Source of the DNA: an uncultured Oscillospiraceae bacterium
GTDB taxonomy: Bacteria; Bacillota; Clostridia; Oscillospirales; Oscillospiraceae
DNA length: 64,000 nt
Direction of reading: 5' to 3'
NCBI GenBank assembly: GCA_944387125.1
Contig: CALXDT010000105.1
Location: 220 to 64,219 of the forward strand
Each line of letters begins with the position of its first letter. The first letter of the stretch is position 1. Of this stretch, positions 4,917 through 27,593 are shown one piece after another. The translations under genes and the position numbers were made by a program. The notes beneath the pieces are model-generated. The model worked only from the letters and a program-made list of their open reading frames with translations. It had not been told where the DNA came from and made no database searches.

Positions 4917-7076
4917 CTATCCCAGCACGGCATTCAGCAGCTGGCACATTTCCTCAAAGTTTCCGTAGGATTCCAGCTGCCATCCGTTTTCTTGGAATTT
5001 CCGCTCCGCCCCCAGAATGACGCACAGGACGTCCTTTCCATCCTGCCGGGCGGTGCAGATACAGCTTGCCGTCCCCCGGAAGAAGGCGAAGCCGCCGGTT
5101 ACGCGGACATCGTAGAATTCCGGAATGGTAGCATTGTCAAGGATATAGTTGGCTGTATAGACGGTGTATTCCTCGCCATTGTCCGGGAACCGGCAGGTAT
5201 ACGACCGGGTTGACCAGATTCTGGACAGACAGTCGTTTTGCAGCATCCGGCTTACAAGGCGCATGGTATCCGCTCCGGTGGTATACTGCCCCTCTGCATG
5301 GCCGTAAAGGTCGGTATAGAATGTATCCTGGCAGAGGGATTCTGCGTACTGGTTCATCTTCGATACCATGGCTTCCTCGCTGCCGGCGTCGAACCGGGCC
5401 AGGGCGTAGGCCGCATCATCGCAGCCCCGGATCAGCATCAGGGTCAGAAGATCCTCCACGGTCATCTGCTCCATGCGCTCCAGGGACAGCCGGGGCTCTG
5501 AGAACGGGAAGGCTGTCTGGTAAACTTCCCGGTTGTTCAAATAGGCCGGGAGGGCGGTGGTGTCCACCAGTTCCTCCGGGTCATGGTTTTCCAGTACCAC
5601 CAGTGCCAATGCCAGCTTGTTCAGATGGCCGGGGGCGACGGTTTCCAGACGCTGATAGCTGTACAGCAGCTCCCCGGAAGCAAGATCGTAAGCACTGGCG
5701 TCCGCCGCGGTTGCCGGGACGTAGGCGGCAGGATCCTCCGCCCGCCGCTTCAGAAGCAAAACCCTGCGGGAATCGGAACGGACATCTTCCAGGTAATATT
5801 CATTATGGCTCAGAACCAGATTTGCGGAGGCCAAAGTATCTGTGACGGGAATCGACCCCAGGGCGCCGGTAGCCTCACACAGCTGCCAGGTTTCCCGTCC
5901 GTCTGACAGATCCGGGTTGACGATGGTCATCACAGCCCCCGGCTCCGTCAGAAGAATGGTCTGGGTATATTCCTGTCCCGCCGCATCCTGCGTCGTTTGG
6001 GTTTTCACACCGGATACCTTTGTGAATTCCAGATGCAGCGCTCCGTTGGTATAGGTGTAGAAGCCGTCCAGCGGTGTAAAGCCGGTTTCCTCCGATGCGG
6101 CGCTTTCCGCCGATGCCGATTGTGTCCCGGCGGCGTCTTCTTCCCTCGGATTGGTCAGAAAGAAAACTGCCGCCGCTGCGGTAATCACCAGCACGGCCGC
6201 CGCCGCCCAAAGACTGGCCTTTTTGAAGCGCAGCACATTCCGGATCCGGGATTTTACACTGCTCTCGCCAAAGGCTACCGGGCATGCCGCCATGGCGCGT
6301 CTGGGAGCGGCACAGGCCAGAAGGGCGCTGGAATAGGCTTTCTTCTCTTCGATGTCCAGACCCGTAACCGCGCGCTCGTCGCAGGCCATCTCCAAATCCC
6401 GGCAGAACAGCGCATACCCGATCCAGACCAGGGGGTTAAACCAGTACACCGAAAGCAGGAGAAAGCCCAGGGGCTTCCACAGATTGTCGTGATTGCGCAG
6501 GTGGGCGCGTTCGTGCCGCAGGACATAGGTTTGGTGTTCCGGATCCAGACCGGAAGGCAGATAGATTTTGGGATTCCAGATTCCCAGAATAAAGGGAGTG
6601 GCAATGGCATCGCACAGATAGAGATTGCCCTCCAGGCGCAGGGAGGCGCGCACCTGCCTTGCCAGCCGGAAATAGCTGAAAACTGTGTACAGCAGCATTG
6701 CCGCCAAGCCTGCAAGCCACAGGGCAGAGGCGGCAGTCAGGACAATCTGCATGGGATTGACGCTTGCCGCGGCGGCTGGGGCGAAACGCTCCCCGATAAT
6801 GGGATTGACGGTGCTGTCAATCACCGGAACGCCGCTGTCAATGGCAGGGGCGGGGGAAAGGGCAATATCCGCGGGAATCGGATCGCTTTTCGGAATCAGG
6901 CTCAGGGAGCTTTCCAAAGAAACCGGCAGCGCCAGACGAATCCCCACCAGGGCCCACAGCCACAGAAGCAGGCTCTTCGGAACCTTCCGCAGGATCAGCC
7001 GCAGCACCAGAACCGCCAGAATCAGGTAGCTGGCGGTAATGCTCAGATTGGCAAAATGCAAAAACACATCACACAT
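4917..7076 (-). CDS. BlaR1/MecR1-like M56 metallopeptidase fused to a degenerate S11 DD-carboxypeptidase domain
   Basis: HERAH zinc motif, WFNPLVW, EMACDE; C-terminal S11-like fold; GGAGG SD before ATG 7076. Confidence 0.85.
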   Translation of the reverse strand: MCDVFLHFANLSITASYLILAVLVLRLILRKVPKSLLLWLWALVGIRLALPVSLESSLSLIPKSDPIPADIALSPAPAIDSGVPVIDSTVNPIIGERFAPAAAASVNPMQIVLTAASALWLAGLAAMLLYTVFSYFRLARQVRASLRLEGNLYLCDAIATPFILGIWNPKIYLPSGLDPEHQTYVLRHERAHLRNHDNLWKPLGFLLLSVYWFNPLVWIGYALFCRDLEMACDERAVTGLDIEEKKAYSSALLACAAPRRAMAACPVAFGESSVKSRIRNVLRFKKASLWAAAAVLVITAAAAVFFLTNPREEDAAGTQSASAESAASEETGFTPLDGFYTYTNGALHLEFTKVSGVKTQTTQDAAGQEYTQTILLTEPGAVMTIVNPDLSDGRETWQLCEATGALGSIPVTDTLASANLVLSHNEYYLEDVRSDSRRVLLLKRRAEDPAAYVPATAADASAYDLASGELLYSYQRLETVAPGHLNKLALALVVLENHDPEELVDTTALPAYLNNREVYQTAFPFSEPRLSLERMEQMTVEDLLTLMLIRGCDDAAYALARFDAGSEEAMVSKMNQYAESLCQDTFYTDLYGHAEGQYTTGADTMRLVSRMLQNDCLSRIWSTRSYTCRFPDNGEEYTVYTANYILDNATIPEFYDVRVTGGFAFFRGTASCICTARQDGKDVLCVILGAERKFQENGWQLESYGNFEEMCQLLNAVLG

Positions 7077-7443
7077 GTTCGTTCCTCCCGTCGTATTCCG
7101 CAATCATCTTCCGGATTTCGGAAATATCCCTGTCAGACAAACCGCCGCTTTCCGCGAAGGCGGCAATGAACGCGGGCAGGGAGCCGGAAAAGACATCCTC
7201 CACAAACCCTTTGCTCTGCCGCGCCTGGAATTCCCTTTGGGACAGAATGGATGTTACCATACCGTTGACATTCTGGAAAATTCCCTTTTCGCAGAGCTTC
7301 TTCAGCACCGTGTAGGTGGTGGATTTCTTCCATTCCAGTTCCTTCGCGCAGAGCTTTACCAGATCGCCGGAGCGGATGGGCTCATTAGCCCAAATCAAAT
7401 CCGCAAATCGCGCCTCTACCACGCCCAGCCGCAAATCATCCAT
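7069..7443 (-). CDS. BlaI/MecI/CopY family repressor
   Basis: WKKSTTYTVLKKLCEKG and FSGSLPAFIAAF; overlaps the M56 gene. Confidence 0.93.
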   Translation of the reverse strand: MDDLRLGVVEARFADLIWANEPIRSGDLVKLCAKELEWKKSTTYTVLKKLCEKGIFQNVNGMVTSILSQREFQARQSKGFVEDVFSGSLPAFIAAFAESGGLSDRDISEIRKMIAEYDGRNEHV

Positions 7444-13389: not shown

Positions 13390-16071
<2,682 letters not shown>

Positions 16072-16087
16072 TCCCCGATTTGCCGAC

Positions 16088-16116
16088 CCTCCGGGCATCT
16101 GCCCGGAGGGTTTTTC
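16088..16116 (+). terminator. Intrinsic terminator
   Basis: CCCTCCGGGCA/TGCCCGGAGGG followed by TTTTT. Confidence 0.85.
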
Positions 16117-16447
16117 CGTGTGAATAGAAACTATAAATATACAGGCAATATTCAAACCGCCGGGTAATCCGCCGGGACATTGGGAATGGAAAATGTATGG
16201 CCCGGGGAAAATAATTTCATTTCTCTCCTTTACTTCAATACACAAACGTGCTAAAATGTAACTATTCTTTTATTTCCCGGAGCGCAGCCTTCTCCGGATG
16301 GGATTTCCCGGGAAATGAACCGTTTTTCCCTTCGTCCCGGGGAAAGCCCGGGGCGCCGGCGCTGCTATAATCTGGTTCCGGCCATGTTATAGACGGATCC
16401 CCGCCTGCGGAGATCCGGGAAGACAATAACAAGAAAGGAAGATCCAC

Positions 16448-18439
16448 ATGAAAGCAACGAAACGATTGCTGGCCCTCTTGCTGGCCGTGACCATGGTTCT
16501 GGCAATGGCCGCCTGCGGCGGCGAGCCTGCCGCTGCGGATACGCCCACCACGGGAAGCAGCACAACACCCGCGGCCACTGCCGCGCCGGTGACGGAAAAC
16601 GCTGTCTATCGGACGCTGTACGCCGCGGAGGTAACGACCCTGAACTACCTGACCACCGGCAACGCCAATGAGTTCGGCATTGCCGCCAATCTGGTGGACT
16701 GCCTGGTGGAGTACGATTCCTACGGCAATGTGGAGCCGGCCCTGGCTGTGAGCTGGGAGCAGAATGAGGACGCCACTGTCTGGACCTTCAAGATCCGGGA
16801 AGGGGTCATGTGGGTGGACAAGGACGGCAAGGAAGTCGCTCCCGTTACCGCCCATGACTGGGTCTCCTCTGCCCACTACGCCTGCGACGCCAACAACGAC
16901 TCCGGGGTGTTCTACACCATGAGCGGCGTCATTGCCGGCGCGGATGCGTATTATAACTGGACCGCCTACCAGCTGGCGCTGACCACCGCCACCGACGGCA
17001 CCGATGAAAACGGCAACCCTGTGAAGCTGATTACCAACGAAGACGGTGAGCAGGAAGTGCTGGAGGAAGTGCCGGAGGCGGCTCTGGAGGATATCGGCGT
17101 GAAGGCGCTGGACGACTACACACTGGAGTTTACCCTGGAATCCTCCCGGCCCTACTTCCTGTCCATGGTTTCCTACGGCCCCTATATGCCCGTTTACGAA
17201 GCATTCCTGGAGCAGTGCGGAGACGCCTTCGGCACCAGCAACGACACCCTTCTGTACTGCGGCGCCTTTATCCTGTCCACCTTCGAGCCGCAGCAGCAGC
17301 GGATCATGACCAAGAACGAAAGCTACTGGGATAGGGACAATGTGTTCCTGGATGCGGTTCAGTCCACCTACAATGCCGAGGCTTCCTCCATTGCGGTGAC
17401 GATGTATCAGTCCGGGGAAGTGGATCAGGCGGACATCTCCTCCGACCTGCTCAGCGCCATGCTGGAAGATCCCGCCACCAAGGATCTGATCCATCCCACC
17501 CGTTCCGATACCTCCTATTCTTACTGGTATCTGTTCAACTTCGATCCCAACTTTGATGCGGAGTATGAGCCGGAGAACTGGGAGCTTGCCGTGAACAATG
17601 AAAACTTCCGGAAATCCATTGTCCACGCCTTTAACCGGATGCCGGCGCTGGCTACCAACGACCGGGTGGATCCGGAATCCCTGAAGAGCAACACCATTAC
17701 CCCCGCGGCCTTTGCCTCCGCCTCCAAGGATTACGCCTATTACGGCGACCTGGCCGGCTATACCGACGGGGATAACTTCGACCAGGAGAAGGCTCTGGCT
17801 TACAAGGAAACCGCCATGGAAGAGCTGACCGCCGCCGGCGCCACCTTCCCGGTGAAGATGCTCATGTGCTACAACCCCACCGTTGCCAACTGGGCCAACG
17901 AGTGCCAGGTGGTGGAGCAGACCATTGAGGGCATTCTGGGCGCCGACTATGTGGACATCATCATCCAGGCAGGCCCCGAAACCGGGTTCCTCTCCGCCGT
18001 CCGCCGCACCGGCAACTACGCCTTCATGAAGTGCAACTGGGGCGCCGACTATGCCGACCCGGAGACCTGGACCGAGCCCTTTGCCGAGGACTCCAACTAC
18101 AGCTTCATCTTCGCCAGCGAAGACGAGACCACCCAGGCGCTGTACGCGGAATATCTGGATCTGGTGGCCAAGGCCAAGTCCATCACCAACGACATGGACG
18201 CCCGGTATGAAGCCTTTGCCGAAGCGGAGGCCTTCCTGCTGGAGCATGCCTTTGCGATCCCCTTCTCCATCAGCAACCGCAGCTACCAGATGTCCGACCT
18301 GAACGTGTTTGAAGGCCAGTACGCCTCCTTCGGCGTGGCCAGCTTCCGGTATAAGGATCAGCATCTGTATGATACCTCCATGAGCATGGAGCAGTATCAG
18401 GCGGCCTATGCGGAATGGCTGGCCGAGCTGGCGCAGTAA
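16448..18439 (+). CDS. oppA: Oligopeptide ABC substrate-binding lipoprotein (AmiA/OppA-like)
   Basis: Lipobox MAAC, LVEYD..G...PALA, WTFKIR, WGADYADP. Confidence 0.9.
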   Translation: MKATKRLLALLLAVTMVLAMAACGGEPAAADTPTTGSSTTPAATAAPVTENAVYRTLYAAEVTTLNYLTTGNANEFGIAANLVDCLVEYDSYGNVEPALAVSWEQNEDATVWTFKIREGVMWVDKDGKEVAPVTAHDWVSSAHYACDANNDSGVFYTMSGVIAGADAYYNWTAYQLALTTATDGTDENGNPVKLITNEDGEQEVLEEVPEAALEDIGVKALDDYTLEFTLESSRPYFLSMVSYGPYMPVYEAFLEQCGDAFGTSNDTLLYCGAFILSTFEPQQQRIMTKNESYWDRDNVFLDAVQSTYNAEASSIAVTMYQSGEVDQADISSDLLSAMLEDPATKDLIHPTRSDTSYSYWYLFNFDPNFDAEYEPENWELAVNNENFRKSIVHAFNRMPALATNDRVDPESLKSNTITPAAFASASKDYAYYGDLAGYTDGDNFDQEKALAYKETAMEELTAAGATFPVKMLMCYNPTVANWANECQVVEQTIEGILGADYVDIIIQAGPETGFLSAVRRTGNYAFMKCNWGADYADPETWTEPFAEDSNYSFIFASEDETTQALYAEYLDLVAKAKSITNDMDARYEAFAEAEAFLLEHAFAIPFSISNRSYQMSDLNVFEGQYASFGVASFRYKDQHLYDTSMSMEQYQAAYAEWLAELAQ

Positions 18440-18589
18440 TCCGTTCTGCAAATCCAATTGTTTCCATGAGGGGCTGTGCATACAGCCCCTCACTGCGAAG
18501 TGTCCTTTCGGAGTCTGTATCCGTGTCCCCTGCCCAAAGGAGGCAGTGGTATGGACTTCGCTCCCATCAATGCCCCAGGAGGAACAACC

Positions 18590-19558
18590 ATGGCAAAATA
18601 TATCATCAAACGGGTTCTGCGATCCCTGCTCACCATGTTCATCATTATCACCATTCTCTTTGCCCTGCTGCGGCTGATGCCCATTGAAGGGTACTTTGAG
18701 AATTTCGACAAAATGAGCAGCACCCAGATTCAGGTCAAGCTCAACTCGCTGGGGCTGAACGATCCCCTGCCCAAGCAGCTGATGCGGTTTTATCAGCAGC
18801 TTCTCCAGGGAGATCTGGGGGTGTCCAATGTCTACCGCAGGGGCGTAGCCATTACCGAGATCATCGGAGAAAAGATCCCCATCTCCATCAAGCTGGGGCT
18901 GATTTCTCTGTGCATCTCCCTGGCTGTGGGACTGCCCCTGGGTATTTTGATGGCGCGCTCCACCCGTACCCGGTTCAAGATCGGGGATCGGCTGGGGACG
19001 GTGTTCATTGTGATCGTTCAGGCGGTACCCTCGGCGGTATACCACATTCTCATCCAGTTTGCCGGTTCCCAGACCTATATCGGCAAGGAGATTCTGGGGT
19101 TTCCCATGCTCTTTGACGCCGCCAATCCCAAAAGCTATATCCTGCCGGTGATCTCCCTGTCCATTGGCAGCATCGCCTACTACGCCATGTGGCTGCGCCG
19201 GTACATGGTTGACGAGTCCAACAAGGACTATATCCGTCTGGCGCGGGCCAAGGGCGTGCCCGGCGGCGCCATTTCCCGGCGCCATGTGTTCCGCAACGCC
19301 TTTGTGCCCATGGTGCAGTATATCCGCAACTCCATTTTGTTCACCCTGATGGGCTCTCTGTATGTGGAGTCGCTGTACTCCGTGCCCGGTATGGGCGGAC
19401 TGCTGGTCACGGCCATTAAGCGTCAGGACAACACCCTGGTGCAGGCGCTGGTGCTGATCTACGCAGTGATTTCCATCCTGGGTCTTCTCTTCGGAGATAT
19501 CCTCATGGGGATTGTGGATCCCCGGATCAGCTTTGCCAAGAAGGAGGGTGCCCGCTGA
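18590..19558 (+). CDS. oppB: Oligopeptide ABC permease
   Basis: MAKYIIKR, GDLG, EAA-like LARAKG motif. Confidence 0.9.
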   Translation: MAKYIIKRVLRSLLTMFIIITILFALLRLMPIEGYFENFDKMSSTQIQVKLNSLGLNDPLPKQLMRFYQQLLQGDLGVSNVYRRGVAITEIIGEKIPISIKLGLISLCISLAVGLPLGILMARSTRTRFKIGDRLGTVFIVIVQAVPSAVYHILIQFAGSQTYIGKEILGFPMLFDAANPKSYILPVISLSIGSIAYYAMWLRRYMVDESNKDYIRLARAKGVPGGAISRRHVFRNAFVPMVQYIRNSILFTLMGSLYVESLYSVPGMGGLLVTAIKRQDNTLVQALVLIYAVISILGLLFGDILMGIVDPRISFAKKEGAR

Positions 19559-20583
19559 TGAAACGACTTGGATTTCGTTCCCTTCGCAATGAAAAAACCG
19601 ACAAGCTGGGAGATTCCCTCAATGAAAAGCTGGCCGCGGAAGCGGCCATGACCGACGCGGAGAAGTTCTCCTTCGAGGAATTTGACCCCAGCGAAGCTGA
19701 GCGGGGAGGCTATTCCGGCTATTCCTACTGGCGGGCAACCCTGCGGGTGTTCTGGCAGAACAAGGTGGCGGTGTTCTTCCTGGTGGTGATGGCGGCGCTG
19801 CTGCTCTTTACCTTTATCCAGCCCTATCTTCCCGGGCAGAAGGATCCGCTGCTGATCCACAATGACCAGTGGGGACTGCCCCTGAACAATATGCCTCCCA
19901 GCGAGGAATTCTGGTTCGGCACCAATTCCATCGGCCAGGATCTGTGGGCGCGGATCTGGGCGGGCACCCGCACCAGCCTGTTCATCGGCTTTGCCGTGGC
20001 CGCGATAGAAGCGGTGGTGGGCATCCTGGTGGGCGTGCTCTGGGGCTATGTGCGCAAGCTGGACTTTTTCCTTACAGAGCTGTACAACGTCCTGGACAAC
20101 ATCCCCCAGACCCTGCTGCTGATTCTGATCTCCTATGTGATGAATCCCGGGGTTGATACCATCATTTTTGCCCTGTCCCTTACCGGGTGGCTGGGCATGG
20201 CCCGGTTTATCCGCAATCAGATCATCATCATCCGGGATCGGGACTATAACCTGGCTTCCCGGTGCCTGGGAGTCTCCACCGGGCGGATCATGGTGAAGAA
20301 TCTACTGCCCTACCTGGTGTCCGTGATCACCATGCGCATGGCGCTGGCCATTCCCTCCGCCATCGGCAACGAGGTGTTCGTCACCTATATCGGCATCGGC
20401 CTGCCGCTGGACACCCCCTCCCTGGGCAACCTGATCCAGACCGGCCGGTCGCTGATGACCGTGGCGTCTCTGCGGTATCAGCTGTACTTCCCGGTGGTGG
20501 TGCTGGCGCTGATCACCATTTCCTTCTATATCATCGGCAATGCCTTCGCGGACGCCGCCGATCCGAAAAATCACGTAAAGTAA
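19558..20583 (+). CDS. oppC: Oligopeptide ABC permease
   Basis: WFGTNSIGQDLW, PSLGNLI. Confidence 0.9.
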   Translation: MKRLGFRSLRNEKTDKLGDSLNEKLAAEAAMTDAEKFSFEEFDPSEAERGGYSGYSYWRATLRVFWQNKVAVFFLVVMAALLLFTFIQPYLPGQKDPLLIHNDQWGLPLNNMPPSEEFWFGTNSIGQDLWARIWAGTRTSLFIGFAVAAIEAVVGILVGVLWGYVRKLDFFLTELYNVLDNIPQTLLLILISYVMNPGVDTIIFALSLTGWLGMARFIRNQIIIIRDRDYNLASRCLGVSTGRIMVKNLLPYLVSVITMRMALAIPSAIGNEVFVTYIGIGLPLDTPSLGNLIQTGRSLMTVASLRYQLYFPVVVLALITISFYIIGNAFADAADPKNHVK

Positions 20584-20594
20584 GGAGGGTCGTT

Positions 20595-21647
20595 ATGGGT
20601 GAACAGCTGCAAAATCCCATCCTCTCCATTGAGGATTTGAATGTGAAATTTACCCTCCGGGGGCAGGTGCTCCACGCGATCCGGGGCGTGAGCCTGGATG
20701 TGCACCCCGGGGAGAGCATCGCCATTGTGGGCGAGTCCGGCTCCGGCAAATCCGTGTTTGTGAAATGCACCATGGGTCTGCTGGACGCCAACGGCCAGAT
20801 CACCGGCGGCGCCATCCGCTATAACGGCATGGATCTGACATCCTTCCGCACCGATGAGGACTGGCTGAAAATCCGGGGGCGGGAAATCGCCATGGTTTTC
20901 CAGGATCCCATGACCTCCCTGAATCCCCTGAAAACCATCGGCAAGCAGATCCAGGAAGCGGTGGAGCTGCACCAGGGGCTGAAGGGCGCCGCCGCCTACC
21001 GGGCGGTGCTGGAGGTGCTCTCGGACGTGGGCATTGACGACGCCCCCCGGCGGTACAAGCAGTACCCCCATGAATTCTCCGGCGGCATGCGCCAGCGGGT
21101 GGTCATTGCCATCGCCGTGGCCTGCCGCCCCAGGATCCTGATCTGCGACGAGCCGACCACGGCCCTGGATGTGACCATTCAGACGCAGATTCTGGAGCTG
21201 ATCAAGGCCATGCAGAAAAAGTACAACCTCACCACCATCTACATCACCCACGATCTGGGCGTGGTGGCCAACGTGGCCGACCGGATCGCGGTGATGTACG
21301 CAGGGGACATTGTGGAAGTGGGCACCTGCGAGGAGGTGTTCTACGATCCCCGGCATCCCTATACCTGGGCGCTGCTGTCCTCCCTGCCTCAGCTGGGGGT
21401 AAAGAATGAGCCGCTGTACGCCATTCAGGGCACGCCGCCCAATCTGTTCCATGAGATCCGGGGAGACGCCTTTGCCCCCCGGAACCCCAGGGCGCTGAAA
21501 ATCGACTTCCTGGAGCGCCCGCCCATGTTCGCGGTGACGCAGACCCATAAAGCCCGTACCTGGCTGCTGGATCCCCGGGCGCCCCAGGTGGCGCCGCCGG
21601 AGCATATCCGCGCCCTGAGAGAGAAGGGAGGGAATCCATATGCCTGA
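20595..21647 (+). CDS. oppD: Oligopeptide ABC ATPase
   Basis: [30 protein letters not shown]. Confidence 0.92.
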
Positions 21648-22575
21648 CCAGCGGAAAAAACTGGTGGAGGTTCAGGATCTGACGGTGCAATTCGGCTCCC
21701 GCCGGCATCCCTTCACCGCGGTGGATCACGCCTCCTTCCACATCTATCAGGGGGAGACCTTCGGCCTGGTGGGCGAGTCCGGTTCCGGCAAGACCACCAT
21801 CGGCCGCGCCATCATCCGCATCCATCCCACCGCTTCCGGCAAGGTGCTCTTTGACGGAAAGCAGATCAACGGTCCCATTTCCCGGGAGCTGGATCGGGAA
21901 GTGACCCGGCGGATTCAGATGATTTTCCAGGATCCCATGTCCTCCCTCAACGAGCGGGCCAAGGTGGACTATATTGTCAGCGAAGGGCTGTATGCCCCCG
22001 GCCGGAAGATCTCCGAGGCGCAGCGCCGGGAAATGGTGGACAAGGCGCTGTGCGATGTGGGGCTGCTTCCGGAGTTTGCCAGCCGGTTCCCCCATGAGTT
22101 TTCCGGAGGACAGCGCCAGCGCATCGGCATTGCCCGGGCGCTGATTATGGAGCCGGACTTCATCATTGCCGACGAGCCGATTTCCGCCCTGGACGTGTCC
22201 ATCCGGGCCCAGGTGCTGAACCTGCTGAGCCAGCTGCAAAAGGAGCGGGGGCTGACCTATTTGTTCATCGCCCACGACCTGTCTGTGGTGCGGTTCATCT
22301 GCGACCGGATCGCGGTGATCCACAAGGGGAAGATTGTGGAACTGGCGGAGAGTGAGGAGCTGTTTGCCCATCCCCTGCACCCCTACACCCGGGCGCTGCT
22401 GTCGGCCATTCCCCAGCCGGATCCCATTGCCGAGCGGAACAAGAAGCTGCTGGTCTACGATCCGGCCTGCCACCGCTACAGCGAAACGAACCGCCCCGGC
22501 TGGGAAGAGATCCTGCCCGGCCACTTTGTTCTGGCCAGCCGGGAGGAGCTGGAAGAATACCGCGAGCTTCTGTGA
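21640..22575 (+). CDS. oppF: Oligopeptide ABC ATPase
   Basis: [24 protein letters not shown]. Confidence 0.92.
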
Positions 22576-22594
22576 CGTTTTTTGAGGTGCCGTT

Positions 22595-23503
22595 ATGATC
22601 TGTCCAACCCCCCTTTCTCCCGGCGCCAAGGTGGCGCTGCTGGCGCCGGCCTCCCCGGCGGCGGAAACGGCTCTGGCGCCGGCGCTGGCGCTGGTGGAGC
22701 GGCTGGGACTTCAGCCGGTGGTCTATCCCTCCTGTTATGGGGAAACCCGCCGGGGTTATCTGGCAGCCGCGGACGCCCGGCGGGCGGAAGAGCTGCACAG
22801 CGCCTTCTCCGACCGGTCTGTTCAGGGCGTATGGTGCATCCGGGGCGGCTACGGCTGCCACCGGATCCTGCCGCTGCTGGAGGAAACGGTATTCCGGAAT
22901 AACCCCAAGTGGTTCGGCGGTTATTCGGATATCACTGCCCTGCACATCTATTTCAATCAGGTGTGCGGGTTTCAGACCTATCACTGCCCCATGCCCGCGG
23001 CCGAGCCGGAGCCAGACCCCTATACGCTGAATGGGCTGAAAAAAGCGCTGTTTGGAGGGCTTTCCGGGGAGGTTTCCAACCCGGCGGATCAGCCCTGGCA
23101 GGTGCTTGCTCCGGGATATGCCCGGGGTCCGCTCTGCGGGGGGAACCTGTCTCTGGCGGCGGCCTCCCTGGGCACCCCCTGGGAGATCGACACCCGGGGC
23201 AAGATCCTGTTTTTGGAGGACGTCGGGGAGAAGACCTACCGGATCGACGCCATGCTCACCCAGCTGCGCAACGCCGGGAAATTCCGTCAGTGCGCCGGGG
23301 TGCTGCTGGGAGGCTGGACAAACTGCCAGCCGGAGGATCCCGGAAAGAGCCTGAGCCTCCGGCAGATTTTTACGGAATTGATCCTTCCGGCGGGAAAGCC
23401 GGTAATGATGGATCTGGCCTGCGGCCACTGCACAACCACCCTGTCCCTGCCTATGGGCGGCGTCTGCGCCATGGGCAGCGGAACCATCACCCTGGAGGCA
23501 TGA
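22595..23503 (+). CDS. S66 LD-carboxypeptidase (LdcA/YkfA-like)
   Basis: RGGYG, GYSDIT (Ser), GGNLS, LEDVGE (Glu), CGH (His). Confidence 0.92.
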   Translation: MICPTPLSPGAKVALLAPASPAAETALAPALALVERLGLQPVVYPSCYGETRRGYLAAADARRAEELHSAFSDRSVQGVWCIRGGYGCHRILPLLEETVFRNNPKWFGGYSDITALHIYFNQVCGFQTYHCPMPAAEPEPDPYTLNGLKKALFGGLSGEVSNPADQPWQVLAPGYARGPLCGGNLSLAAASLGTPWEIDTRGKILFLEDVGEKTYRIDAMLTQLRNAGKFRQCAGVLLGGWTNCQPEDPGKSLSLRQIFTELILPAGKPVMMDLACGHCTTTLSLPMGGVCAMGSGTITLEA

Positions 23504-23506
23504 GCT

Positions 23507-24313
23507 ATGGATTCTTTTCTGCAAACCCGCCTGCGGGAACAAATGGAGGCCTTTCCCGCCAAATCCGCTCTGTACTGCGTGGATCTGCGCACCGGGGCGG
23601 AGCTGGCCGCCCTGGGGCAGGATATCCAGGTGATCTCCGCCTCGACCATCAAGCTGGCCATATTGCTCTATGCGCTGGATCGGGTGGGAGCGGGGGAGCT
23701 GTCCATGGAGCAGTTTGTACCCATCGAATCCCAGGACTACTGCGGAGACACCCAGGTGTTTGAAGCGGAGTACCGCCGGGACGGAGCCGGCCTGCGGGAG
23801 ATGCTCCACTGGATGATGGCCTTAAGCGACAACACCGCCACCAATGCCCTGATCACTCTGCTGGGCTTTGAGGCGATCAATGGCTACATTGCCGCCCTGG
23901 GGCTGAAATCCACCGCTTTGCAGCGGAAAATGCTGGACTTTCAGGCCGTTTCCTGGGGAAGGAACAACTACACCTCCCTGGAGGATCAGTACCGGATGTA
24001 TGAAGGACTGTACCGGGGAACGCTGCTGCCCCGGGAGCTGGGGCAATGGGCGCTGGATCTGCTGGGACGGTGCCGCAGCTTCAGCAGCCTGCAGCGGTAT
24101 CTGCCGGATCCGGTGCCGGTGCTGCACAAACCCGGGGAACTGGATCATCTGAGCCACGACGCGGGGATCGTCCTGCTGCCAAACCGCCCCTATTTCCTGG
24201 GGGTCTTTACCTGGGACGGCCCTGCACTGGACGGGCAGCCCCAGCAGAAGCGGCTCATCGGCCGCCTGTCCCGGATGGTATACGACTATATGAAAGAAGG
24301 AACATTGGAATGA
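23507..24313 (+). CDS. Cytoplasmic serine hydrolase of class A beta-lactamase fold
   Basis: ASTIK (SxxK), SDN, HKPG; no signal peptide. Confidence 0.85.
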   Translation: MDSFLQTRLREQMEAFPAKSALYCVDLRTGAELAALGQDIQVISASTIKLAILLYALDRVGAGELSMEQFVPIESQDYCGDTQVFEAEYRRDGAGLREMLHWMMALSDNTATNALITLLGFEAINGYIAALGLKSTALQRKMLDFQAVSWGRNNYTSLEDQYRMYEGLYRGTLLPRELGQWALDLLGRCRSFSSLQRYLPDPVPVLHKPGELDHLSHDAGIVLLPNRPYFLGVFTWDGPALDGQPQQKRLIGRLSRMVYDYMKEGTLE

Positions 24314-25161
24314 ACGCCATTGTCATTGCGCCCATCTGTCCACTGCATGCCGAACCCAGCCGGGAAAGCACCCTGCTGGACGAGGCGCTGTGCGGCATGG
24401 TGGTGGAGATTTTGGACGAGTCCGCCCCCGGCTGGTATCGGGTGCGCACCCACTACCGGTATGAGGGGATGGTTCCCGGCAGCTGCCTGGTGATCGGGGA
24501 CGATCTGGTGAACATCTGGCAATCCCAGCCCAAGCAGGTGGTGCTCCATAAGAATTTCTGTGATGTGCTCTCCCAGCCCAGGGTTCAGGGCAGCCGCCTG
24601 GCTACGCTGCCCCGGGGGGCATTGGTGTCTCCCGTGGGGCAGCCGGACAAGGGCTGGCAGCTGGTGCGCCTGGCCGACGGCCGGCTGGGCTATGTGCCCG
24701 CGGGGATTTTGGGCGCCTATCACACCCAGCCCCTTTCCCGGGAGGAAGGGGTTTTGCGGAAAGCGCTGACCGACGCGGCCATGCTGTACCGGGGCACCCA
24801 CTACCGCTGGGGGGGAAAATCTCCCCAGGGCATCGACTGCTCCGGCCTGGTGTCTATGGCTTATCTGCTCTGCGGCATTGTGATCTACCGGGATGCGGAC
24901 ATTCGGGAAGGGTTTCCCATCCATGAGATTCCCCGGGAGCAGCTTCAGCCGGGGGATCTGATCTTCCTGCCCGGCCATGTGATGATGTACCTGGGAGAAA
25001 ACCGCTACTGCCACAGCACCGGCCGTGCCGGGGACGACGGCTTTGCGGTAAACAGCTTTGACCCCGGCGCGCCGGACTACCGGGAAGACCTGAAGCTGGA
25101 GGAAGCCCGGGCAGGCTCTTACTTTTCCTATGAAAGCTCCGCATTCATAGGAAAACTTTAA
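24310..25161 (+). CDS. SH3b + NlpC/P60 gamma-D-Glu-diamino-acid endopeptidase (YkfC-like)
   Basis: YRWGG, GIDCSG, GHV, CHS; SH3-like N-terminus. Confidence 0.88.
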   Translation: MNAIVIAPICPLHAEPSRESTLLDEALCGMVVEILDESAPGWYRVRTHYRYEGMVPGSCLVIGDDLVNIWQSQPKQVVLHKNFCDVLSQPRVQGSRLATLPRGALVSPVGQPDKGWQLVRLADGRLGYVPAGILGAYHTQPLSREEGVLRKALTDAAMLYRGTHYRWGGKSPQGIDCSGLVSMAYLLCGIVIYRDADIREGFPIHEIPREQLQPGDLIFLPGHVMMYLGENRYCHSTGRAGDDGFAVNSFDPGAPDYREDLKLEEARAGSYFSYESSAFIGKL

Positions 25162-25293
25162 ACAAATGCCGCATCTCGCCCCTTACGGGGCAACCGATGC
25201 GGATGCATATCAATCCCCATGCACGTACTGCTTTCTTGGTTCGTGGCGTGATCGTATCCCATGGGGATTTAACCAGGAAACGGAGAAAGCCAT

Positions 25294-26100
25294 ATGAAAG
25301 TATATTTAAGCGCGGATATGGAAGGCACCTGCGGCATTGCCGCCTGGCCGGAGACCGAGCGTGCCGCGGCCATGGACTACACGCCGTATCAGAAGCAGAT
25401 GACCCGGGAAGTGGCGGCGGCTTGCCGGGGAGCGTTGGCCGCCGGCGCCCGGGAGGTGCTGGTGAAGGACGCCCACGACAGCGCCCGGAACATCGACCCC
25501 CGGGAGCTGCCCCGGAACACCCGGATGTTCCGGAATTGGGCGGGAGATCCCTTGAGCATGATGACGGGGCTGGATCAGGAGGCGTTTGACGCGGTGTTCT
25601 TCACCGGATATCATGCCTGGGCAGCCTGCTCCGGGAACCCTCTGAGCCACACCATGAATCTGCGGAACAACCGGGTGACGCTGAACGGCCGGCCCTGCAG
25701 CGAATTCCGCATCAACGCCTATACCGCCGGATACTTCGGCGTGCCGGTGGCGCTGGTGACGGGAGACGAAGACCTGTGCCGCAGCGCCCAGGCGCTGATT
25801 CCCGCCGTTACCACCGTGCCGGTGAACCGGGGGCGGGGCGGCGGCGTCTGTTCCATCCACCCGGACGCGGCGGTGGAGCGGATCGAGGCCGCAGCCAGGG
25901 AGGCGCTTTCTAAGGCCGGGGACTGCCGGGTGCCCATGCCGGAGCATTTCCGCATGGAGATCGAGTTTATCAAGCATGCCGAGGCCTATTCCAAGAGCTT
26001 CTACCCCGGAGCGGCTCTGGCGGACAGCAAGACCGTGGCCTTTGACAGCGGCTGCTGGTATGAGGTGCTCCGGTTCTGCCACTTTGTGCTCAGCGGCTGA
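25294..26100 (+). CDS. dppA: M55 D-aminopeptidase (B. subtilis DppA-like)
   Basis: SADMEG, DAHDS, GYHA, LSHT, VTGD. Confidence 0.9.
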   Translation: MKVYLSADMEGTCGIAAWPETERAAAMDYTPYQKQMTREVAAACRGALAAGAREVLVKDAHDSARNIDPRELPRNTRMFRNWAGDPLSMMTGLDQEAFDAVFFTGYHAWAACSGNPLSHTMNLRNNRVTLNGRPCSEFRINAYTAGYFGVPVALVTGDEDLCRSAQALIPAVTTVPVNRGRGGGVCSIHPDAAVERIEAAAREALSKAGDCRVPMPEHFRMEIEFIKHAEAYSKSFYPGAALADSKTVAFDSGCWYEVLRFCHFVLSG

Positions 26101-26143
26101 TTTCACCATCCCCGCCGCTGCGGTAATTATCAGGAGAGAAACG

Positions 26144-26869
26144 ATGCCCTATTTGTATGAAACCCACTGCCACTGCGCGCAGTGCAGCCGGTGCGCCCAT
26201 TCTGATTCCCGGGAGATGGTTCGCGCCTACCGGAAAGCCGGGTATGCCGGCCTGGTGCTGACGGATCACTTTATTTTCGGCAACACCGCGGTGAGCCGCA
26301 GCCTGCCCTGGGCAGACCGGATGCACAGGTACTACGACGCGTATCTGGAGGCTCGGGAGGAAGGGGAGAAGCTGGATTTTGACGTGATCTTCGGCTTTGA
26401 GCACTACTACGGCAGCGGCAAGGAGATGCTGGTGTACGGTGTGGGACTGGATTTCCTGCTGGCGCACCCGGAGATCCAAAGGATTCCCCTGGAGGAATTC
26501 GCGGCTCTGGTGCGGAGCGCCGGAGGACTGCTGATCCATGCCCATCCCTACCGGGATCGGTACTACATCGATCTGTCTGTGCAGCCCCGGATCGACCTGG
26601 TGGACGGCATTGAGGTATACAACGCCTGCAGCGCCCCGGGAGAGGATGTCCAGGCGCTGCGGCTCAGCCGGGAGCACCCGGCGTTCATCCTCACCAGCGG
26701 CGGCGACATTCACGACGCTTCGGATCCCCGGATCGGCAGCGGGGGGATTCTGCTGCCCCATCGGGTGCGCAATGAACGGGAGTTTGTCCAGGCTCTGCGG
26801 CAGAAGCGGTATCCCTGGATGGTTCACGGCCGCCTGCTGACGCAGATCCGGGAAGCGGATCTGCTATGA
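26144..26869 (+). CDS. PHP-domain metallophosphoesterase
   Basis: ETHCH, TDH, HAHP, EVYN, GGDIH. Confidence 0.85.
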   Translation: MPYLYETHCHCAQCSRCAHSDSREMVRAYRKAGYAGLVLTDHFIFGNTAVSRSLPWADRMHRYYDAYLEAREEGEKLDFDVIFGFEHYYGSGKEMLVYGVGLDFLLAHPEIQRIPLEEFAALVRSAGGLLIHAHPYRDRYYIDLSVQPRIDLVDGIEVYNACSAPGEDVQALRLSREHPAFILTSGGDIHDASDPRIGSGGILLPHRVRNEREFVQALRQKRYPWMVHGRLLTQIREADLL

Positions 26870-26882
26870 CCGGAGGACTGCC

Positions 26883-27593
26883 ATGAAACGAACCGGCCTT
26901 TCGCAGGAGGCGCTGAAGGGCATTGCCTGCCTGACCATGCTGATCGACCACATGGGGGCGGTGCTGTTCCCTTCGGTGATGGTGCTGCGGGTCATCGGGC
27001 GGACAGCCTTCCCCATCTACTGCTTTTTGCTGGCGGAAGGGGTCTGCCGCACCCGCAGTCCGAAAAAGTATGCCCTGCGGCTGGGGATCGGGGCACTGCT
27101 GTCTGAGATTCCCTTTGACCTTGCGCTGTTCGGCGGGATTACCCTTCGCCATCAGAGCGTTATGGTGACGCTGCTGCTGGGCTTTCTGGCGCTGGAAGCC
27201 ATCCGGGCCCTGGAAGGGAAGGGAAGAACCGGCCTGTCCCTGGCGGGGCAGGCTCTGGCGCTCTGGGGAGCCGTTGCCGCCGCCGACTGGCTCAGCACCG
27301 ACTACGGCGGGGCGGGGGTTCTGCTCATTGCCCTGTTCTATTTTACCCGGGAGCTGCCCCGGAAGCGGCTGATCCAGGCCCTGGGTCTGACAGCGTGGGT
27401 GTACGTGTTCTTTCCGGGCAGAATCACCCTGCTGGGACTGTCTTTCCCCATTGAGCTGCCGGCTCTGGGAGCCATGCTCCCCCTCTGCTTCTATTCCGGC
27501 AGGAAAGCCACTGGCAGCAAGGTGGTTCAGTGGGGATTCTACCTGTTCTACCCGGTGCACCTGATGGTGCTGTATCTGATACAAGCGGCATAA
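26883..27593 (+). CDS. TraX-family membrane protein (putative acyltransferase)
   Basis: LKGIA..TMLIDH, GRTAFPIY..AEG, DYG..G, FYLFYPVHL. Confidence 0.88.
   Translation: MKRTGLSQEALKGIACLTMLIDHMGAVLFPSVMVLRVIGRTAFPIYCFLLAEGVCRTRSPKKYALRLGIGALLSEIPFDLALFGGITLRHQSVMVTLLLGFLALEAIRALEGKGRTGLSLAGQALALWGAVAAADWLSTDYGGAGVLLIALFYFTRELPRKRLIQALGLTAWVYVFFPGRITLLGLSFPIELPALGAMLPLCFYSGRKATGSKVVQWGFYLFYPVHLMVLYLIQAA

Follow-up and report, generated by a model that had tools for sequence, protein, structure and literature searches.

A serine hydrolase with a class A beta-lactamase fold encoded between ldcA and ykfC in peptide uptake operons of gut Clostridia

Gut Clostridia live amid shed cell wall fragments, which are also ligands for NOD1 and NOD2 of the host, and the use of such fragments by Firmicutes is known mainly from the ykf genes of Bacillus subtilis. 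In this species, the genes in the order dppABCDE-ykfABCD encode a peptide ATP-binding cassette (ABC) importer and, as cytoplasmic enzymes that degrade stem peptides after their import, the M55 peptidase DppA, the S66 enzyme YkfA/LdcA, the SH3b-NlpC/P60 protein YkfC and the epimerase YkfB (PMC3305447; PMC2954226); YkfC requires a free N-terminal L-Ala and takes tri-, tetra- and pentapeptides (PMC2954226). The 64,000 nt stretch analyzed here (the window), from contig CALXDT010000105.1 (C105, positions 220 to 64,219) of the metagenome-assembled genome (MAG) of an uncultured Oscillospiraceae bacterium (2.13 Mb, about 60% GC, 85% complete), contains a system like that of B. subtilis. It comprises nine tightly packed genes, all on the + strand, for OppABCDF, an LdcA, a serine hydrolase with the fold of class A beta-lactamases and of the penicillin-binding protein (PBP) PBP-A, here called BlaL, a YkfC-like protein and an M55 peptidase; close homologs are found in MAGs of gut Oscillospirales that bear the labels Faecousia, Oscillospiraceae or Clostridiales. 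The ldcA-blaL-ykfC arrangement is real and, apparently, had not been described, and we found no paper in the open-access literature on a class A-fold gene in a ykf-type operon.

An earlier reading of this DNA from its sequence alone (the original prediction) had listed the oppABCDF, S66, serine hydrolase, SH3-NlpC/P60 and M55 genes as a murein-peptide recycling operon comparable to the dpp-ykf genes, and Pfam located all nine where they had been read, with the importer, LdcA (S66) and YkfC in one unit. Gene ldcA (22595–23503, +) encodes a cytoplasmic LD-carboxypeptidase of the LdcA/YkfA type with the N and C domains of Peptidase_S66 (S66C); it matched the NCBIfam muramoyltetrapeptide carboxypeptidase model at 1e-33, under the equivalog cut-off, and the motifs GYSD, LEDxGE and CGH could be read in its translation. 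The start of blaL (23507–24313, +; 268 aa; Beta-lactamase2, PF13354, 7e-51) is 3 nt past the ldcA stop, and its own stop is overlapped, as ATGA, by the start codon of ykfC (24310–25161, +), for a gamma-D-Glu-diamino acid endopeptidase of the YkfC type with SH3_16, SH3_3 and NLPC_P60 domains, in which Cys177, His223 and His235 are invariant among 28 orthologs. The last gene (25294–26100, +) encodes a DppA-like M55 D-aminopeptidase (Peptidase_M55, 2e-85); members of the close clade have it 3′ of ykfC in the same orientation, and in deeper relatives it is on the opposite strand or absent. Pfam domains begin within the first 1–22 residues of the four hydrolases, in agreement with the earlier observation that they lack signal peptides. 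The gene order differs from that of the B. subtilis dpp-ykf genes: the M55 gene is last instead of first, and ykfB is unlinked in this genome and lies 5′ of oppA in relatives. In addition, the binding protein OppA belongs to the large Ali/Ami type, and the class A-fold hydrolase gene between ldcA and ykfC has no counterpart there in B. subtilis. We take the opp-ldcA-blaL-ykfC-M55 locus to be a single transcription unit for stem-peptide scavenging of the dpp-ykf type.

The position of blaL is widely conserved. We mapped the window proteins by tblastn on 10 loci of the same family and on 80 named loci, and found ldcA-blaL-ykfC in about 50 of the latter and adjacent blaL and ykfC genes in 55. The order oppABCDF-ldcA-blaL-ykfC spans Oscillospirales and Lachnospiraceae, occurring in Faecousia-like MAGs, Pullichristensenella, Pseudoflavonifractor, Intestinimonas, Flavonifractor, Catabacter, Spyradocola and Anaerocolumna, as well as in one MAG labelled Faecalibacterium. 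Cultured carriers of blaL include Pseudoflavonifractor gallinarum DSM 107456 (L052) and Intestinimonas aquisgranensis CLA-AA-H199 (L067). The most persistent neighbor of blaL is ykfC, and seven loci contain the pair without ldcA or opp genes (L020, L023, L024, L070, L071, L078, and L081). As a separate observation, the complete genome of Anaerocolumna sedimenticola CBA3638 (L074; NZ_CP048000.1, 2640087–2660848) has the order ykfB-oppABCDF-blaL-ykfC, with no ldcA in the operon, and two more BlaL-like paralogs within 20 kb.

BlaL and YkfC also occur as a single polypeptide. An exhaustive search of representative proteins combined with Pfam revealed five Beta-lactamase2-SH3b-NlpC/P60 fusions (P0146, P0161, P0167, P0180, and P0257), and a search with P0257 added others from Alkaliphilus metalliredigens QYMF (P0273), Anoxynatronum buryatiense and a Sericytochromatia MAG; a word-index search for longer forms with the window BlaL retrieved only one, unrelated, fusion (PF13354 plus PF02190). 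Two fusion genes viewed in context are directly after opp genes, and a 525-aa open reading frame (ORF) for a fused BlaL-YkfC lies beside ykfB in L088. In one case, in the Logan contig SRR9330144, a member of the Orn/DAP/Arg decarboxylase family is encoded (L126:4517-5881) between oppF and the gene for a BlaL-SH3b-NlpC/P60 fusion, which fits a use of the released diaminopimelate. For the separate window proteins, structure prediction gave a BlaL-YkfC complex with a score of 0.32, against 0.01 for the best control, with a contact agreement of at least 72% between runs and a predicted local distance difference test score (pLDDT) of at least 91 for the partners. Of 80 solved complexes, 58 reach the mark for these predictions, as do 2 of 110 mismatched pairs, and at complex scores of 0.60 or lower just 7 of those 80 reach it, together with both mismatches, so the predicted complex is weak evidence; the fusions, and not the complex score, are the main argument for a joint action of BlaL and YkfC. 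Other architectures of the Beta-lactamase2 family seen with Pfam were BlaL-NUDIX, GNAT-BlaL, a secreted tandem with SLH, and VWA-BlaL (P0128, P0194, P0148, and P0261).

The translation of blaL shows the motifs S46-T-I-K49, S107-D-N109 and K208-P-G210, and begins at the N-terminal helix (helix 1) of the fold, without a signal peptide; members from Firmicutes are 253–273 aa long and likewise start at helix 1, whereas the distant homologs from Bacteroidota (L099) carry signal peptides. Among 65 distinct operon-linked orthologs, Ser46, Lys49, Asp108 and Gly210 are invariant, Ser107, Asn109 and Lys208 are each present in 64, and position 209 is T or P. In a hand alignment to the TEM numbering, made on sequences and not on coordinates, R140 corresponds to R164, M142 to E166, D144 to E168 and Q146 to position 170, which is Asn170 in functional class A enzymes. 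The original prediction had described an SxxK/SDN/KPG hydrolase without an evident Glu166 omega-loop motif, and indeed 64 of the 65 orthologs have a Met, Met142 in BlaL, where class A has Glu166. Other residues kept across the clade are D81, F85, E86, R140, D144, N154, D160, R197, Y198, H217 and D218.

A 69-row alignment produced an AlphaFold2 model of BlaL with a pLDDT of 96.3 (just 41 for the single-sequence model), and in a Foldseek comparison with this model PBP-A structures occupied ranks 1–6, with template modeling (TM) scores of 0.89–0.90 (0.90 for 2J7V and 2JBF), followed by 4HES (0.90) and LRA-5 (0.87). By sequence, the nearest solved relatives were 4HES (3e-21), 4EWF and PBP-A/Tll2115 (1e-15), with true beta-lactamases at 1e-8 or weaker. 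PBP-A from Thermosynechococcus elongatus, about 25% identical to BlaL, is a DD-carboxypeptidase/endopeptidase without the omega-loop glutamate (PMC11189452). Both proteins combine the SxxK, SxN and KTG motifs with a class A fold in which the catalytic Glu166 is missing, and in both an xDxG motif follows KTG. They differ in that the omega-like loop of BlaL, with the motif RKMLDF, is 5 residues longer, and in that the gene for BlaL is part of a catabolic operon, with fusions to YkfC in several lineages; moreover, PBP-A was assayed as a periplasmic enzyme on the sacculus (PMC11189452), whereas BlaL has no signal peptide. The class A-like protein 4HES from Veillonella parvula, of about 270 aa, is the best sequence match among solved proteins and shares with BlaL the R-x-M-x-D-F omega-loop and HD-G motifs; the entry comes from structural genomics and has been assigned no function, and the open-access literature yielded neither a paper about it nor a function. 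LRA-5 (8EO5), a class A ‘precursor’ from Alaskan soil, also has the fold and a residue other than Glu at position 166, and is more distant by sequence (2e-10); it has Val at this position and does not confer resistance as wild type (PMC12777564). Of the traits of a functional class A beta-lactamase, BlaL has the Ser/Lys, SDN and KPG motifs and lacks Glu166, an export signal and a family-level score; of those of the PBP-A type, it has the class A fold without Glu166 and PBP-A as nearest relative by structure, and lacks the extracytoplasmic location. Neither Glu166 nor a signal peptide is present, and the score for the NCBIfam model bla_class_A is 84.6 against a cut-off of 200, which supports the view, from sequence, that BlaL is not a bona fide beta-lactamase.

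These comparisons suggest a working model for the operon, to which, as a whole, we give slightly better than even confidence. The large Ali/Ami-type lipoprotein OppA, together with OppBCDF, would import free stem peptides, from which the cytoplasmic LdcA would take off the L,D-linked terminal D-Ala, and the L-Ala-D-Glu product would go to a YkfB epimerase encoded elsewhere in the genome. Given the substrate range of B. subtilis YkfC, from tri- to pentapeptides, cleavage of longer or cross-linked peptides by YkfC would leave DD-linked C-terminal fragments, which LdcA, specific for L,D bonds, and the M55 enzyme, acting on N-terminal D-residues, are not obviously able to clear. A DD-peptidase like PBP-A, joined to YkfC, would close this gap. 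In this model, BlaL is an optional module between ldcA and ykfC, functionally coupled to YkfC, and most likely acts in the cytoplasm as an acyl-enzyme DD-peptidase of the PBP-A type on the D-Ala-D-Ala end of pentapeptides or on the mDAP-D-Ala-D-Ala left by YkfC (mDAP, meso-diaminopimelate), and/or on D-Ala-mDAP (4-3) cross-links; such an activity would broaden the range of wall fragments that the operon digests, and, if directed to YkfC products or free peptides, would leave UDP-MurNAc-pentapeptide alone. We give about an even chance to BlaL being a PBP-like DD-peptidase of the cytoplasm that acts, together with YkfC, on pentapeptides or on 4-3 cross-links, a substrate and a bond that we infer from the comparisons above. 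The more specific proposal, that it would be the first PBP-fold DD-peptidase inside the cytoplasm, forming with YkfC a two-enzyme unit that spares UDP-MurNAc-pentapeptide, is tentative and falls clearly short of even odds. In any case, BlaL is a conserved accessory enzyme added to a known pathway, with good comparative support. If the proposal is true, a cytoplasmic PBP-like enzyme coupled to YkfC would be an extra step in this pathway and a rare intracellular case of the fold, and gut Clostridia would have a previously unrecognized step for the salvage of peptidoglycan peptides.

Several points weigh against a DD-peptidase. To our knowledge, every characterized PBP-type DD-peptidase acts outside the cytoplasmic membrane, and one in the cytoplasm would need to leave UDP-MurNAc-pentapeptide intact. 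No function has been published for 4HES, the nearest relative by structure to share almost the same omega-loop motif. Additionally, the omega-like loop (R140-K-M-L-D144-F ... N154) has five residues more than that of PBP-A and the residues D81, F85, E86, D144, R197, Y198 and H217 are invariant in the clade, so the specificity of BlaL may differ. Lastly, blaL is dispensable for the pathway: in 150 sampled genomes of the family, a YkfC ortholog is present in 24 and BlaL in 11.

BlaL might instead cleave another bond of the imported wall peptides, conditioning the substrates of YkfC either as an amidase on amidated mDAP or D-isoglutamine, or as a hydrolase of D-aminoacyl-peptides. The invariant residues specific to the clade, probably near the active site, count in favor of such a role. 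The beta-lactamase clan contains amidases and glutaminases (PMC5324141), PBP-A itself is highly specific for amidated muropeptides (PMC11189452), and the tightest linkage of BlaL, including the fusions, is with YkfC and not with LdcA. However, the nearest characterized relative by fold is a DD-peptidase, and the SxxK, SDN and KTG motifs belong to the group formed by DD-peptidases and class A enzymes. We also know of no class A-fold amidase of this kind, and altogether consider this alternative unlikely, although it deserves more weight than those that follow.

An improbable alternative is that BlaL does not catalyze any reaction, and is instead a sensing or other non-catalytic partner of YkfC or a regulator resembling the class A-like protein BlaB from Streptomyces. 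The model of BlaL does match the fold of BlaB (2WUQ; TM 0.84), and the fusions and the weak predicted contact with YkfC would suit a non-catalytic partner as well. Nevertheless, the catalytic residues are all kept in 64–65 of the 65 orthologs, and blaL lies within a run of genes for catabolic enzymes, in an operon without a regulator gene.

The original prediction had placed BlaL in the slot of the YkfB epimerase and proposed an epimerase-free route, as could occur, for instance, by hydrolysis of L-Ala-D-Glu. In its favor, there is no ykfB in the operon of the window or of the clade closest to it (60–73% BlaL identity), in which ykfB is outside the operon and the M55 gene follows ykfC; YkfB was not found in two of the five close-clade genomes searched, which are MAGs of unknown completeness; and a peptidase for the L-Ala-D-Glu bond was undescribed as of 2012 (PMC3305447). 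However, the genome search for ykfB that the same prediction had recommended did find a homolog: the genome that contains the window encodes one MR_MLE protein, of 368 aa (G000:C135:8228-9334), whose best NCBIfam model is that for L-Ala-D/L-Glu epimerase (262 bits) and which, among solved proteins, is nearest to YkfB of B. subtilis (1JPM, E 6.6e-104), with further dipeptide epimerases ranking next. Orthologs with 80–81% identity are present, on separate contigs, in the other three of those five genomes, and therefore ykfB belongs to the lineage and a binning error is unlikely. Furthermore, in 20 related loci ykfB is directly upstream of oppA, on the same strand and in one operon with blaL, while operons of the same family without blaL have the organization ykfB-opp-ldcA-ykfC (L113) or opp-ldcA-ykfC (L115). 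From the co-occurrence of ykfB and blaL in the same operon and the existence of ldcA-ykfC operons without blaL, it follows that blaL is an optional insertion and not a replacement of ykfB; BlaL adds to the epimerase step, and the proposed substitution, now very improbable, is largely refuted.

The surroundings of the unlinked ykfB gene include a gene for a HAD phosphatase directly upstream and, 5 kb away on the same contig, one for a VanY-type D-Ala-D-Ala carboxypeptidase (G000:C135:2457-3446, − strand; L003). A Dat enzyme had also been suggested to handle the released D-amino acids, but the class IV aminotransferase gene in question is 12 kb away, on the opposite strand and behind unrelated genes, and we did not retain it as a member of the system.

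A true beta-lactamase conferring resistance, as might be suggested by the Pfam match and by a class A fold with three of its four motifs, is hardly credible, given the Met at the Glu166 position, the low bla_class_A score, a location away from the site of drug action for want of a signal peptide, and the absence of resistance with the wild-type forms of the Glu166-less relatives LRA-5 and PBP-A (PMC12777564; PMC11189452). Resistome surveys should accordingly leave PF13354 genes of the BlaL clade out of their counts of resistance genes, since these genes probably do not encode beta-lactamases.

The importer genes occupy the first part of the locus. OppA (16448–18439, +; 663 aa; SBP_bac_5, 4e-47) is a substrate-binding lipoprotein whose signal ends in the lipobox LAMAAC. 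Among solved proteins it is nearest by sequence to the pneumococcal AliD, AliB and AmiA (9e-57 to 9e-49), and not to DppE or to MppA (just 7e-19); in the explanation that we favor, OppA is predicted to bind murein peptides. It is followed by the permeases OppB (18476–19558, +; BPD_transp_1) and OppC (19558–20583, +; OppC_N and BPD_transp_1), and by the ATPases OppD (20595–21647, +), starting with an ATG after the Shine-Dalgarno sequence AAGGAGG, and OppF (21640–22575, +), both with ABC_tran and oligo_HPY domains.

Upstream of oppA, and 3′ of the terminator hairpin of a P-type ATPase gene read in the sequence at 16082–16115, a promoter scan identified a promoter-like site (16229–16257, +; TTTACT-17-TAAAAT, with extended TG) whose −35 and −10 boxes are kept in 14 close relatives. 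The oppA leader is about 190 nt long, and its untranslated sequence contains a 28 nt hairpin (16365–16392, +), CTATAATCTGG-loop-CCATGTTATAG, with a sequence kept in each of the 14 close-clade loci that cover this part of the leader. RNAalifold predicted 10 pairs for this hairpin, which are retained mostly via G-U wobble changes; as these make up almost all of the variation, the pattern fits an RNA element on the + strand, and the hairpin may be a cis-regulatory element of the opp-ldcA-blaL-ykfC operon. A second hairpin, variable in sequence, is located 3′ of the conserved one, and an Rfam scan of positions 15900–27000, including the leader hairpin, matched no family. We considered whether the conserved hairpin could mark a regulon shared with the unlinked ykfB, and rejected this because it is present as a single copy in the genome. 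Nor is the oppA leader a copy of a miniature inverted-repeat transposable element (MITE) of this genome, in which its sequence is unique.

Two other genes of the window are recorded here. Downstream of the operon, 40 nt past the stop of the M55 gene, there is a gene for a PHP-domain metallohydrolase-like protein (26141–26869, +), an order that is kept in L031 only. Further away, positions 4917–7103 (− strand) encode a BlaR1-type M56 protein with a C-terminal Peptidase_S11 domain (Pfam, 5e-51 and 5e-19).

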